Assembly: GCA_964016885.1 (NCBI GenBank)
Contig: OZ024755.1
Location: 10,788,001-10,852,000 of the forward strand
Reading direction: 5' to 3'
Origin: Eledone cirrhosa
Lineage: Eukaryota
Length of the DNA: 64,000 nucleotides
A model generated the notes under the pieces. That model was not told where the DNA came from. It saw nothing but the letters and a program-made list of their open reading frames with translations, and did not search any database. Below, piece by piece: positions 5,520-42,826 of the stretch; position 1 is the stretch's first letter; every line of letters begins with the position of its first letter. The position numbers and the translations under genes were made by a program.

Positions 5520-5734
5520 AGAAAGTGAGGTTTTTTTTTTTTACAAAATGAAAAATAACCGAGGTGTACTACACGAGTGGAAGTATAAAGAAAAAGAGAT
5601 GAAATCGAAAATGCAACTGAAGTCTTATTTTTTAAAAAAATATATATATTTATTTGGTTCCTTTACCGGTTTCGCAGTTCTTCTGCTTTTCAAAAGGTGA
5701 GTTGAGATGGAGGGTCTGTGGTTTTTCTCACATC

Positions 5735-9850: not shown

Positions 9851-11551
9851 GTAATAATAATTATATATATATATATGTGTGTGTTTATATATATAAATAA
9901 AATAAATATATATATATATATGTACCTGTACATTTTGTATGAGTATCAAACGAGAAAATATGTACAACTAAAAGGTGAATAAATAAATAAATATATAAAA
10001 TATTGATTTCGCAAAATGTGGACGAGATAACCCTGGAAGTCGATAATGTACCTATACTGCTTGATCTGGTTTTTTGGTTGATTATCATTTTTTTTTTTGT
10101 CACGTAGCATTTCCTCGACTGATTTAGATGTTCGCTAGATGAGGTATGTACGGATGTTTTGTAGATGTCACATACAACGCAAGCTATTTTAGTTTTGGCT
10201 GAGAGACAAACCAGATACACTTCCGCAAAATAGTTAACGGAACACACATGTGCTTTCTTTCTTACTCTTCACACTCTTGCCTATATTCCTGTTTCTTCTT
10301 TTATTCCACATTCTATCTTCTGATGGAAGACTGACGCCCGAAACGATAATACTTTTTTCCCTATTATAACAAACGTTAAGCTATCTACTTTACTATTTTA
10401 CTTAGTCCCTCTTGCGTATTCTCTGCCACATCCTATTCTTTCCCAGAATGATCTCAAGCCTACGCAAACTCTGCGCTCTAATTCCGCCATTTTCTTTATA
10501 TTTCTGCCCAGTAATCATACAGATCTTCATCTCTGCTATACCTATCTCTCCTCAAGATACATTCCACCATTGACCGAACACTCCATGTCAAAGCGACAGA
10601 GCTCCATTTGACTTTATATCTGTCAATTCTTTTCTTATCAGCGAAGAGTTGCAACGCGGTGGAAAATCCATACACACGGTGGTAGACATCTGTATGACTT
10701 AAACATTGATACTAGGTTGAACAGTATTTTAATCTGGACCTATCTCCTTAAATGTAACTGGGCGAATAAGGTAAACTCTGCTTGAACACTTGAAGGGTTA
10801 GAAATACCAGCCAAATTTCTTTCACATCAAACTTTATGAAATGAATGGGTTCTATGAAGTCTCGGACATACTATGCGCATGTGAAAAACACATGGATTTG
10901 TCACGTCTAGAGCAGCATTGATCGTATGCGTACAAAATCAGATCTGAGCTGAAGCTAATTAACACTATTTCCTTTCCGCTTATCTCTTTATTATCTTTCT
11001 CTTTCTATCTCCTTCTCTCTTCATCTCTTTATATATATATATATATATATGAGCGTGTATGTGTGTGTATGTATTTATGTGCTTATGTATATGTGTGTAA
11101 GAGTAATTGTGTCTATGCGTTTGAGTGTTTATATCTGCATTTTAGTGAGTGTCTTCTTTCTAACAAACACTTTAAACACTTCAAAACGTTAAATTGTTTG
11201 TCTTGGCAAACTACTCCCCATCATCACCTACATTCTCCTCTATCCCTTTTCTATATCCCAAACCACGCTCCGCATCCCACCAAACTCGCCATCCCAAACC
11301 ACACCCAACTGAAAAACACCCACAACAATAAAACAATAGTAGAGAATGAACAATAAAGCTAAGAGGGGAATAACAGCGACAAACTTGACAAAGAATATTT
11401 TGTCCATTGTATTATTCCTTGCAGAATTCTTTACAAAACTGAATACAATTCCCACCAGGTTCTTCATATTTAATGATGATTTATCGGTAAAAGAAAGTAT
11501 CTATAGATCTTAATGATGCCTTTTGTTATTGGTGCTTCTGTTGGCTGTCTG

Positions 11552-11685
11552 AAGGTGCCTGGCCTAATGGTTACAATATTGGGTTCAAGATCGTATGGTC
11601 GTGATTTCGATTCCCGTGCCGATAGGTGATGGGGCGTTTTGTCTTTAAGCAATGCATTTTATTTCGAGTTTACTCAAGCTGGAAA
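11552..11685 (+). mobile_element. Degenerate tRNA-derived SINE head
   Basis: GGTGCCTGGCCTAATGGTTA (A-box-like), TTCGATTCCCG (B-box-like), TTTGTCTTTAAGCAATGCATTT (decayed CORE-like). Confidence 0.55.
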
Positions 11686-11840
11686 GAAATGAGAGAGAGA
11701 GAGAGATTAGGATTTCACCTATTCTAAATTAGTAATATCATTATTCAACGGCAGGAGCTCAGCCGCCGAACTCGGACTCTCTAATAGATATATATATTTA
11801 GAGTGTAATATGACAAATAATGTTAGTCTAGTCTAAATAT

Positions 11841-11881
<41 letters not shown>

Positions 11882-12083
11882 CATATATATTATTTATGTG
11901 TGTGTGTGTGTATGTATATGTATATATGGTGCTCTGAAATAGCGATATATATATGAATGTATATATAGTGTATTTTGCAATACACTGTATGCTTAATTAA
12001 AAGCATTTCGAAGACCTCACGCTATTGTTTTAGAGTAGTGCCAGTCTCATTACTTTAAATTTTCAGCAAACAAGGGGAGATAA

Positions 12084-12126
12084 AGCTGACAGCTCTGTTT
12101 CGTACTGATCGGTACTTATCAAAGCC
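12084..12126 (-). ncRNA. Type I hammerhead ribozyme, U3-A8 variant (copy 1)
   Basis: Minus strand GGCU-UUGAUAA-GUAC-CGAUCA-GUAC-GAAA-CAGAGCUG-UC-AGCU; stem III 2 nt shorter than in copy 2. Confidence 0.7.
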
Positions 12127-12432
12127 AAGTACTCCACCTGTTTGCTGAAAATTGTGAATGTTTGATTCTTATAGAATTCTATTAATAATCAGGAACTGAT
12201 TATACAGAGCGGTTGCCGATATATATATGAATGTATATATAGTGTATTTTGCACAGTGTATTGCAAAATACACTATATATACATTCATATATATATCGCT
12301 ATTTCAGAGCACCAATTATAATTTTTAATTTCTGCTTGACTGGCAACCGCTCTGTATAATCAGTTCCTGATTATTACTAGAATTCTATAAGAATCAAACA
12401 TTCATGATTTTCAGCAAACAGGTGGAATACTT

Positions 12433-12477
12433 GGCTTTGATAAGTACCAATCAGTACGAAACAGAGCTCTGTCAGCT
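12433..12477 (+). ncRNA. Type I hammerhead ribozyme, U3-A8 variant (copy 2)
   Basis: GGCU-UUGAUAA-GUAC-CAAUCA-GUAC-GAAA-CAG-AGCU-CUG-UC^AGCU; all three stems pair; GUC cleavage triplet ends at 12473; stem I extended by 14 perfect bp (12407-12420 with 12489-12502). Confidence 0.82.
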
Positions 12478-13266
12478 TTATCTTCCATTGTTTGCTGAAA
12501 ATTTAAAGTAAGTGAGACTGTCACTACTCTAAAACAATAGCGTAAGGTCTTCGAAATACTTTTAATTAAGCATACGGTGTATACACTATAAATACATTCA
12601 TATATATGTATATATTAACATTTTGTTATCTCGTAGAAAATACATGATATCTCTGGATGAATTCAGAACATAGTCACAATTAATTTCCTATATCAAATTT
12701 TTTTTTTTTTTTTACTTATTAGTAAAATAACAATACATTAGGTTATATTACACTTGATTTCACTTAATTTGATTTTTACTATACTATTGTCTTCATCAAT
12801 TTCTAATATACCACTAAATTTATCACGTTATCATTTCAGCAATAATAAATACAGTTTAGAGGAACTAATATAATTTACTACGCCACACAAATGACTTTAC
12901 AGTTAGTTTTATTTATATTGATTTTTTTCTTGTATCTTAACATTTAATTTAAACAGTATGTGTGACAATCTCAGCAATCTATTTTTTTTTTTTTTTTTTA
13001 TATATATATACATACGTTGGTTTTATATTTTCTGGGGACAGGGGTTAAAATGTATATATATTTTTTTTTCGCAAAATCAATATTTACTAAACCACCCCCA
13101 ACGTACACTCGTATACAGACATTTTAAACATATTTCCTTACATAATAAACAACTCACTTATCTCATTTATAAATTGAATAATAACATAAATTTATTCTGT
13201 AACTTCTGTTGCTTTTGTTTTGTTTTTTCGATACTAAAAGCAACGAACCCAAACAACCAGGTCCTC

Positions 13267-36920: not shown

Positions 36921-38784
36921 TTATTTTATCTGTTTATTTATTTATTTATTTTTGTCTTCTTCAAAACATCTGGACCAAACCACAAATTAAGAATGTCCTA
37001 ATTCGTAAACAATACACATAGGAAATTGAAGCCAACTATAGCCTACAAGGCCTACACTATATTTGAAACTCCATCTATTTTAAGTTTCAGTAAAGTACCT
37101 TTCTGAGGTCTGCGCTCTATACAGCTGCCATGTTGGCCTTGGTGGTAGTGCTTTCATGGCCATTCTCACTCTGAGTAAAATGAGGGAAAAATGAATATCA
37201 AATAGGAAGAGTAAATGTACAAATACGATAGAGGAATAGATGTAGTGAGTTAATAACCTACAGAAAGAGATGTGTAGAAGAGGAAAGAAGTTAGAACCGA
37301 AGGCATGAAAGTAGAAGTGTGTTTGGTAAGAAAAATAAAGACAGATTGACTGGTAGTTGGACAGGAATATATATGTAAATAAATAGAATAAGGAATCAAT
37401 GAGACGGTCTCACTGGTAGACAGGGAGAGAGTATATTATCAAGAGACTGTTGACAAACAACGGATATAACGGACTGATAATATTGGACTGACGGCACGTA
37501 ATAAAACAGTAGTGTGTGTGGGTGTGTAGATATATAAGAGTGGATGGGAGTGCGTGTGTGGGGGATTATAATTAAGAATGTATTTGGAAAGCCGGTACAA
37601 TGCGAATAAGAAATATAATGGTTTTTACACGTTTCATAATATTTCAAAGATAGCTCTTTTTCAAATATAGAATGAAGGAAAATCGGTGCAACTTCTTTCA
37701 AGCTATTCTTCATTGATGTTTTGTAGGAAGGCGACATATACAGATCGATCACAATAGTCAGCTCCATGTAACTGAAATCTGTTATTATTACTAGATGTAT
37801 ACCTGTTGAGAAGAGGTGCCTCTTTGATCCGCAAATTATCAATGTTCCTCTCACCGGTTTCTATGGTAACCTCAATATCTCGTGTGTGTGTGTGTGTTTC
37901 AGACCTGCGTCAGTTACGATAAGGGGTGTTTTAGATATTCGAACAAAGGTACAGCTGGCTCTTGAAATTGATGTGAATTTGGTTAATTATTGCATAGAAA
38001 CGTGTACCCTAACCATAAGTCTCAGTGTAACAAAGACGTGAGAGATGCAACTAGTTTGAGGGGAATATGGCAATGAGAAGTATAGTGTCTTGTAATCGAA
38101 CTCTCAATCGGGTGTCGAAAACCATAAAATCTAAGTCATCTTGCTATAAGTTATAATAGTTTATGTTTTACAGTTAACGATCAGCTGATGACAGATACTC
38201 TACATAGAGTAAAGTGGTAAGTTATTACAATTTCATCAATAAAATGTAGTTACTCGCATTACACGTTTCGCTATATGCAACTGAACAACAGTAGTTGTAA
38301 AAAGCTCTTCCGCTAAAATTGCATTAGATATAAATGTTTGTTTTTTTATTGACATACTAATGGGTGTGTGCATGTGTGAGTGTGAGTGTGTGTGTGCATG
38401 TGTGTGAGTGTGTGCGTGTGTTGTGTGTTTCATAAGGTATCTATCAATGAGTACAAATTGATGGAGAGGGAGACCTACATTTTTGACATGCAAATAATAT
38501 AGTGCTGGTGGCGTATGTGGTTGATTAAGGGGGAGTAGATGATTCAGAACGTTGTGAATTCAACATTTCAGAGATTTATACTAATCATTGCAGCGTTGAC
38601 CATACTAATGTTAATGTTGATGATTGTACATATTATATATAGTCTTTCTAGTATGGCTTCTTAAAATGTGTACATACTATTGAAATATCACGGGGCTTCT
38701 CTGTTGGATATGATATATCTCAGCAACGCTAACTCTCCAGCCTTAGATCTACTCAATCAATGTTACATACATACGTATATACTT

Positions 38785-41269: not shown

Positions 41270-41445
41270 CTTCTACAAGACTAGAAATGTTTCATTCGGG
41301 AGAAATCATCATGAAGCCCTGATGATTTCTCCTGAATGAAACAGTTCTAGTTCTGTAGAAGCCTTTTCTTTATTAAATATTTATACTCTGCTTTCTATTG
41401 AGTACCTTACTTACTGAGGTTACCCCCGATTGAACCCGGCATAAA
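41268..41445. mobile_element. Fold-back copy of HHR element family 2 with two opposed hammerhead motifs (41268-41318 minus; 41319-41363 plus)
   Basis: Plus: CTGATGA-TTTC-TCCT-GAAT-GAAA-CAG-TTCTAGTT-CTG-TA-GAAGCC. Minus: GGCTTC-ATGATGA-TTTC-TCCC-GAAT-GAAA-CA...TG-TA-GAAGCC. Starts at a (TA)n tract. Confidence 0.75.
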
Positions 41446-41633: not shown

Positions 41634-41967
41634 GGGCGAGTAAAATTCCCGAGATCCATGGACGAGTTCTCTCCAGCGGTCTCTGTCCCTCTTTACCGCT
41701 GCCATGTCCTGCGTCTCGAACAGACCAGTGTCTGTCCTTAGGCCATCAACATACGTTAACCTTTGGTCTTCCTCTTCTAGTGCGTCCATGCAGGGGCTCC
41801 CACAGGAGCACTGAGTGCAGTGTCGACTCTGGATGTCGGTGAGCATGTCCAGCTAACCTCAGTCTTCTCTGTGTCACTTTTGAGCTGACTTTTGGGAGGC
41901 TCCCATACAGCTGTGAGTTTTTCATCCTCAATGTATACTGATTAATGTTCAGAGCCATCCTCAGCAT
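41633..41967 (-). mobile_element. RTE-clade LINE, non-inverted 3' segment
   Basis: MLRMALNI...RRLRLAGHAHRHPE...LLWEP.HGRTRRGRP, then frameshift to RLTYVDGLRTDTG...DRDRWRELV; ends at (TA)n. Confidence 0.9.
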
Positions 41968-42338
41968 TGGTGACAAATATAGGGAAGGAGGCAGAGGATT
42001 TGATGCAGGAAGTTGAGACTGTGTCGATGAGTGTGGGGCTGAGAATGAATGAGACTAAGACAAAATGTCTGGTAGAGAATGTTGCGAAGCCAGAGGGGAT
42101 TACTAATGTAGGCGGGAAGCCGCTGGAATTAGTTGAGGACTTCCTGTATTTGGGAGCAAAGATTGGGAATACGGAAGATGATGTGGTTGAGAGGAAGAGC
42201 AAAGCCTGGGCGGCGTGCCACAGTTTCAGATCGGTGTGGAAGTCGGACCTTCGTGAAGACCTGAAGATCTGCCTCTTCATTGCTGTAGTGGAGTCTGTGC
42301 TGCTGTACGGGTCTGAGACTTGGACACTGACCAAGAAA

Positions 42339-42341
<3 letters not shown>
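41968..42341 (+). mobile_element. RTE-clade LINE reverse-transcriptase/thumb segment, inverted relative to the 3' segment
   Basis: VGLRMNETKTK...VEDFLYLG...KAWAAC...VWKS...VESVLLYGSETWTLTKKL are typical RTE RT C-terminal motifs; ends at (TA)n. Confidence 0.92.
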
Positions 42342-42399
<58 letters not shown>

Positions 42400-42826
42400 T
42401 CGTCGATCTACGTTTACATTTCATTGTATTTCAAAACATATATACATATGAGTATATGTCTGAATAGAAACTTTAAATTTTCCTAGCATTCTTTTTTTAT
42501 GACCAAATATTTTTCTTATTTATTTTCAAGCGCTTAGTGGAAGCGAAAAAAAAGTATTTTTTTCTAGGCCTTACGGAAATCAAACTAGATGTAACATAAG
42601 ATAGCAAGCAGCAAGTGGCATGTTATCGCTATCGTATCTCTACTATGTTCACTGCGATTATACGATTCATTAAACTTGATTCAAACTCGTCTATTTGAAT
42701 TGTGAGCGACATCAGTACACATTTCAACGACAGTCAGCATGTGGTATATAAATTATTTATACACCATATATATGTAATGTATATTATTCTATACATATGT
42801 ATATATACATATATATATACACATAC

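Follow-up and report, generated by a model that had tools for sequence, protein, structure and literature searches.

The non-LTR retrozymes described in metazoans have units of 220-245 nt in corals, 350-390 nt in mussels and 330-350 nt in the axolotl (Cervera and de la Pena 2020, PMC7229834). What moves them? The mover of animal retrozymes has so far been argued from co-occurrence with Penelope-like elements (PLEs) and from ribozymes in common (PMC7229834), and later from pseudo-LTR homology (Li, Clavereau and Pollet, bioRxiv 10.64898/2026.07.22.740005). For PLEs, a tail, an inversion and a bias to TA targets are described as typical of insertions (Craig et al., PMC8557442); the tail is attributed to two internal start sites of reverse transcription and to cutting and extension of both strands of the target, and this two-start signature is called unique to PLEs (Frangieh et al., PMC11167929).

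The locus analysed here lies in a 64,000-nt stretch of Eledone cirrhosa DNA, the window, and belongs to a large repeat family. By the sequence-testable features that were tested, this family is an animal non-LTR retrozyme, one that would work like a non-autonomous PLE. It has in common with the retrozymes of PMC7229834 a non-coding, low-GC unit within 150-450 nt, a canonical type I hammerhead, tandem arrays beside dispersed copies, and co-existing PLEs, but it differs in the U3-A8 ribozyme core of two of its three subfamilies. Its PLE insertion footprint is clear, whereas the terms 'inverted', 'microsatellite' and 'truncat' have no occurrence in the main text of that paper. Li et al. propose the same class of partner and also describe monomers, dimers and multimers; their argument, however, is one of co-occurrence and pseudo-LTR homology in vertebrates, while ours is one of insertion footprint, and no pseudo-LTR homologous to our unit was found in 48 PLE loci.

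The original prediction spoke of an undescribed retrozyme family. The family, a multi-copy non-coding hammerhead tandem, does appear new, but the class is already described (PMC7229834), and the PLE hypothesis is also in print (PMC7229834; bioRxiv 10.64898/2026.07.22.740005). In the parts of the literature consulted, we met no description of this family, and none of retrozymes with a tail footprint, though supplements may list such families; the word 'ribozyme' is absent from the main text of an octopus repeat annotation (PMC13282606). Our reading of the window locus, which the balance of the evidence moderately favours, is an insertion of a non-LTR retrozyme that was copied by PLE machinery into a (TA)n tract, likely from a circular RNA monomer.

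Structure of the window locus

The period of the repeat is 321 nt, ACAGTGTAT at 12253 being followed by ACGGTGTAT at 12574. The window sequence agrees with the original prediction of a terminally redundant 321-nt unit carrying a hammerhead, with an inverted copy upstream. The features are as follows.

11838..11926, no strand: (TA)n/(TG)n microsatellite, the putative target site (from the sequence and from the TA-abutting 3' ends of the whole family)
About 11927..12253, minus strand: inverted, 5'-truncated arm of about 1.05 units, ending in the 'tail' against the TA/TG microsatellite
12217..12290, no strand: head-to-head inversion centre, a fold-back of unit 10-46 against 1-46
12253..12573, plus strand: full 321-nt unit, from the period and family matches of 95-97% identity; unit position 1 is 12253
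12297..12322, plus strand: 'tail' segment (unit 45-70), bounded by two fixed 3' end points and here internal to the unit (from the histogram of end positions; both sites are common to subfamilies 2 and 3)
12574..12607, plus strand: terminal redundancy, the start of the next unit less 8 nt; it stops in TA-rich DNA at the 'short' one of the fixed 3' ends (unit 42-44)

The plus arm (12253-12607) amounts to 1.13 units. The inverted arm has a 44-nt internal deletion (unit 47-90), and its tail end is at about unit position 62-68. The hairpins named in the original prediction are present at 12255-12274 and 12357-12373, together with CAGAGC/GCTCTG at 12305/12349, and the unit folds better than all of 100 shuffles (z -4.96). 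Since 321 is 3 x 107, could the unit be read as an endless circular ORF? This is ruled out by 5-10 stops per round in all six frames; the longest ATG frame has 35 aa, and the earlier claim that the unit holds no ORF stands.

The original prediction had also allowed that the inverted duplication might be a fold-back made in assembly. The right junction is bridged, without other letters, by two public-run contigs (contigs of unrecorded kind, from one study with four runs), and an artefact would fit the fact that in the same pieces neither the left junction nor the inversion centre is spanned by a contig. Against it, the two arms differ at 10 of 232 shared columns and 3 gap columns, besides the arm-specific deletions of 44 and 8 nt, and 106 of 168 insertions of the family are inverted likewise. 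For these reasons a fold-back artefact is very unlikely, and we give it next to no weight.

The locus has one ribozyme per strand, so it could not itself release a monomer and is, as far as its sequence goes, a daughter insertion. ARAGORN finds no tRNA gene in the window, and the part at 11550-11700, adjoining the insertion, resembles what we take to be the head of a tRNA-derived SINE.

A full-length hammerhead ribozyme

Each arm carries one hammerhead.

12407..12503, plus strand: type I hammerhead (from sequence, constrained fold and covariation)
12058..12153, minus strand: second hammerhead, in the inverted arm, with its core from 12122 downward and a predicted cut at 12088/12087

The plus-arm hammerhead has a long stem I (12407-12503), the core TTGATAA (12437-12443), stem II (12444-12457, GTAC/GTAC), GAAA (12458-12461) and stem III (12461-12472, ACAGA/TCTGT), and the cut is predicted at 12473/12474; the copy in the inverted arm has a 2-nt deletion in loop 3. 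The core is of the U3-A8 type instead of CTGATGA. The constrained ribozyme fold has -31.5 kcal/mol against -34.1 for the free fold, and the region folds better than all of 200 shuffles (z -5.13). No Rfam family reaches its gathering score, and the only hammerhead match is HH9 with 19.5 bits (E 0.056), probably because of the U3-A8 core. Matches to Rfam miRNA families arise from the TA-rich fold-back and were discarded.

The core, three stems and NUH site are those of a canonical type I hammerhead. In the minimal hammerheads of PLEs stem III is absent or a palindrome and stem I is short, but ours is full-sized, with a stem III of 3-5 bp, a long stem I with a 14-bp extension and predicted folding as a monomer (compared with PMC4209133). 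The U3-A8 core is a natural variant reported in Schistosoma PLEs, and its covariation is common to our ribozyme and the minimal hammerhead of Schistosoma Cercyon (PMC4209133).

Is the fold maintained? An alignment was made of 26 hand-picked copies from the three subfamilies, with two truncated or deleted copies left out. In it 94% of cells are paired, and both partners have changed in 16 of the 28 pairs, a level reached by none of 500 shuffles, while slid controls have only 33-45% of cells paired. Two-sided changes occur in all three stems and in the core 3-8 pair (UA 18, CG 7); as the copies are related and fall into few subfamilies, these changes represent a handful of independent events, though in every helix. 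RNAalifold independently recovers the hammerhead fold. Within subfamily 1 alone, stem II shows a change from T-A to C-G in 21 of 259 copies and from C-G to T-A in 17 of 259. Because the ribozyme is only 56-65% identical between subfamilies and yet keeps 94% of its pairs, the pattern points to selection for cleavage. Such selection would be most sensible if cutting and closing belong to the cycle of the element. The three subfamilies also offer one full-length hammerhead in natural forms with a U3-A8 and with a C3-G8 core pair.

Copy number, arrays and subfamilies

The original prediction would have failed with a single-copy unit. In the 3.0-Gb assembly there are 1,274 exact matches to the ribozyme core and 2,788 and 4,369 to two other unit motifs, against 0 for reversed controls; these counts are of units, not loci, and are lower bounds. 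A DNA search with the unit gave 2,011 candidates, of which the 40 scored have 95-97% identity and are spread over many contigs. A 22-nt motif had 0 matches in metagenome contigs.

The tandem arrays that had been expected from a genome search with the monomer were found as well. They hold 17 units in L170 (458-5957, G000:C1 about 82.39 Mb), at least 29 in L176 (the whole locus, G000:C2 about 230.64 Mb) and at least 10 in L173 (194-3220), which is satellite-like as is L176. Within L170 the variation seems to gather in the ribozyme, at its loop 1, distal stem I and loop 2, and the rest of the unit is more uniform.

Three subfamilies can be told apart, with units of 321, 314 and 322 nt; the 314- and 322-nt ones have 2,715 and 2,930 candidates. 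Subfamilies 2 and 3 have 84-85% identity to subfamily 1 outside the ribozyme and only 56-64% within it, and the U3-A8 core occurs in two of the three. The unit is non-coding with a GC content of 0.32-0.35, and it occurs from dimers to multimers with a length inside the 150-450 bp of retrozyme tandem units. Two or more consecutive ribozymes on the same strand, by which Li et al. call a retrozyme 'active', occur in 27 of 168 insertions and in the arrays, but not at the window locus. No LTR-like structure was seen in the 168 insertions.

Insertion footprint

How did the dispersed copies arrive? We mapped 224 unit clusters in loci selected by the unit, excluding those selected by GIY-YIG. Removal of duplicates, of clusters touching a locus edge and of clusters below 60 nt left 168. 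Some redundancy persists among these, a few being segmental copies or one place counted twice, and the sample is biased to well-preserved copies on contig C1. Identical insertions copied by larger genomic duplications are seen at L028 and L029 (G000:C2 384.96 and 384.64 Mb) and at L178:2083-4064.

The 168 insertions comprise 106 inverted pairs, 60 simple insertions and 2 others. Of the outer 3' ends, 272 in number, 116 fall at unit 36-50, with 96 of them precisely at 44, and 123 at 60-80, with 65 precisely at 70; the other 33 lie outside these ranges. In all, 239 lie at two fixed sites about 27 nt apart, and these two sites recur in subfamilies 2 and 3. TA repeats abut 186 of the 272 3' ends, compared with 16 of 64 outer 5' ends. 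Most inverted pairs (71 of 106) combine a short end with a tail, as in the window, while 5 are short/short, 1 is tail/tail and 29 are other. The 5' ends are scattered across the whole unit. Ends lie within (TA)n tracts, which hide target-site duplications such as those of more than 4 bp that non-LTR retrozymes may have.

The varied circular permutations that had been anticipated for the family did not appear. Free permutation is rejected, for variation is confined to the 5' ends, the 3' ends being fixed at unit positions of about 44 and 70. This pattern is what internal initiation by a PLE followed by 5' truncation would leave; by itself it does not favour a circle over an uncut multimer. The family shows two fixed internal 3' ends with an optional one-sided tail, variable 5' truncation, an inverted adjacent copy and a microsatellite target, and here the earlier suggestion of a Penelope-type structure was borne out. 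Because the two-site 3' ends, tails, inverted pairs and TA flanks match the PLE footprint, we consider it very probable that the retrozyme was moved by PLE machinery, that is, by a reverse transcriptase with a GIY-YIG endonuclease. As read from the insertions, this would be unusually direct genomic evidence for PLE mobilisation of a retrozyme.

On another reading the likeness to PLEs is incidental, and the unit is a satellite or a SINE-like repeat that a LINE reverse transcriptase or amplification at the DNA level has spread. Twin priming by LINEs also produces inversions, LINE RT fragments lie near some copies, long arrays exist, and the array of L235 may be a local DNA amplification. Against it stands the PLE signature itself, two fixed internal ends separated by about 27 nt and a single tail in each inverted pair; moreover, the listed junctions have no poly(A) end and the copies are spread over many contigs. 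We regard it as highly improbable.

The insertion structure also brings the family close to known elements. Partial tandems, a 5'-truncated inverted arm, an optional tail at one end (30-40 nt in theirs) and (TA)n targets are common to our family, to the endonuclease-bearing PLEs (Penelope/Poseidon, Neptune, Naiad) and to the non-autonomous Chlamys elements such as MRC1 (PMC8557442, PMC11167929). Unlike the endonuclease-bearing PLEs, the retrozyme unit has no ORF, and its tail is of about 26-31 nt; unlike the non-autonomous Chlamys elements, which are generally similar at the 3' end to an autonomous family, no such similarity was found for the unit.

Relation to Penelope-like elements

The genome has 10,596 GIY-YIG candidates, of which 150 were scored. 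Among the PLE ORFs checked, three have RVT_1 and GIY-YIG, one has GIY-YIG only and one has neither; several carry a CxxC linker as in Neptune elements, a label given by motif and not by a tree. A frame of 938 aa in L093 and one of 636 aa in L096 are candidates for an intact host PLE ORF. TA repeats close those PLE 3' UTRs that are complete. Minimal hammerheads occur in several of the 3' UTRs, and are of the U3-A8 type in two families. As a side observation, the U3-A8 minimal hammerheads of these two families come with an ACCGGT palindrome (3' UTRs of L075, L079, L072 and L091), and this rare core is also that of two retrozyme subfamilies.

Does any PLE have the termini of the unit, as had been proposed? 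None was found by blastn, either in the termini or in the UTRs, in 48 PLE loci. A nhmmer profile of 60 real copies found in the same loci only inserted copies and a weak 59-nt match (E 0.023), and in the flanks of 97 variable ends no upstream sequence recurs at one and the same position of the unit. Nowhere in these 97 flanks and 48 loci, a partial sample of the PLEs, is the unit continuous with an RT and GIY-YIG ORF at a fixed position; the original prediction would have been overturned if all copies were pseudo-LTRs attached to such ORFs, and the unit is free-standing in all loci sampled.

The units might nevertheless be 5'-truncated pseudo-LTRs of an autonomous PLE outside the sample. Their insertion footprint is PLE-like, retrozymes homologous to PLE pseudo-LTRs are reported in Xenopus (bioRxiv 10.64898/2026.07.22.740005), and the scored candidates are only 150 of 10,596. 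But the head-to-tail period is 321 nt and not kilobases, the 97 flanks and 48 loci yielded neither a recurring upstream sequence nor a homologous UTR, and the PLE families seen have different, minimal hammerheads. An origin as pseudo-LTRs is in our judgement very improbable.

A few copies of the unit are in direct contact with PLEs. In three loci its 5' side is joined directly, without a TA tract, to a PLE ORF, each of a different family. The joins are head to head in L091 and L235. In L092 (2551-6282, G000:C1 about 173.73 Mb) 2.03 units and a 27-nt fold-back join the PLE ORF at the place where the opposite, inverted PLE arm starts, which suggests, from the junction, that retrozyme and helper cDNA may have been integrated jointly in one event. 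One of four unit-PLE junctions, that of L005, has a short TA run at the join. These chimeras were rejected as statistical support, since a PLE ORF is close by at 4 of the 97 variable ends, compared with about 5% of background positions.

Circle or uncut multimer as template

If the retrozyme is moved by PLE machinery, which RNA is copied? The cycle that we favour would begin with transcription of tandem loci. Hammerheads would then cut monomers at unit 221/222, to be closed by a host ligase. The PLE protein would nick both strands of a TA tract and start cDNA at unit 44 and about 70, and one start site per strand would give inverted pairs in which just one of the two ends has a tail. Synthesis through the ligation point would yield 1-3 units before truncation.

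A ribozyme-cut linear monomer as the main template predicts copies of at most about 170 nt and 5' ends piled at unit 222, and was rejected. Insertions longer than one unit number 118 of 168, and 14 of 168 are longer than two. Only 4 of 301 arms start at unit 219-225, compared with about 6.6 expected if starts were uniform, a count that may be somewhat lowered as part of the sample was chosen for an intact core. Insertions beyond one unit, together with the lack of a pile-up at the cut, leave a circle or an uncut multimer as the template.

In favour of a circle, neighbouring units have haplotypes in common: within one arm, 50 of 472 polymorphic cells are different between tandem neighbours, compared with 5,497 of 14,799 (37%) between loci. 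Rare variants are in common for 7% in tandem arms, 10% in inverted arms and 1.3% between loci, percentages which do not separate a circle from a multimer. The arrays L173 and L176 are fairly uniform, so haplotypes common to neighbours would also fit a multimer template.

A PLE acting on the same element might instead copy a linear multimer, left uncut and transcribed through a tandem locus, with the hammerhead slow or used in another step and the circle unneeded. This is possible but on the whole unlikely. For the one PLE tested in vitro, unprocessed RNA was the main substrate, the ribozyme did not have to cut, and its mutants continued to insert (PMC11167929), and non-autonomous Chlamys PLEs insert multicopy head to tail (PMC8557442). 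Possible multimer sources exist in 27 of the 168 insertions and in the arrays. In L003 and L009 the haplotype changes from one unit to the next, something that a single monomer circle cannot produce. At L235 (1183-1810, G000:C1 about 56.078 Mb) a 164-nt deletion unit, from which the ribozyme is missing altogether, stands in tandem 3.7 times, with G/C/G/C alternation at one site, a normal tail end and a 5'-truncated PLE head to head with it; by exact pattern this deletion unit was found at no other place in the genome.

Against the multimer, compensatory change keeps the ribozyme fold in three subfamilies, and adjacent units resemble each other more closely in dispersed copies, with 29 of 202 cells different, than they do in L170, a heterogeneous array with 27 of 96. 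Circles have also been demonstrated for related animal retrozymes, which accumulate in that form (PMC7229834). Given a retrozyme moved by PLE machinery, we hold a circle to be somewhat more likely than an uncut multimer.

A more tentative and rather doubtful extension may be proposed. The element would be a viroid-sized circular RNA, copied by rolling circle by PLE reverse transcriptases with whose termini it shares no sequence, and a parasite of several PLE families recognised by structure. It would sometimes be co-integrated with helper cDNA (L091, L092, L235), and its ribozyme, subject to structural selection while in RNA form, would change more quickly than other parts of the unit.

The PLE-specific two-start tail on hundreds of insertions gives exact predicted initiation points, unit 44 and about 70. 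With these, the in vitro assay of PMC11167929 can test whether a PLE uses the retrozyme and whether as circle or multimer, a question which also bears on how PLEs form their own partial tandems.

Other elements in the window

Four more minimal hammerhead-like motifs occur in the window, at 5693, 5073 and 36874 on the minus strand and at 41319 on the plus strand. The one at 5693 is similar to the U3-A8 motif in the 3' UTR of one PLE family. A weak PLE GIY-YIG fragment lies at 37769-37969 on the minus strand, and an RT fragment, presumably LINE-like by its motif, at 41946-42460.
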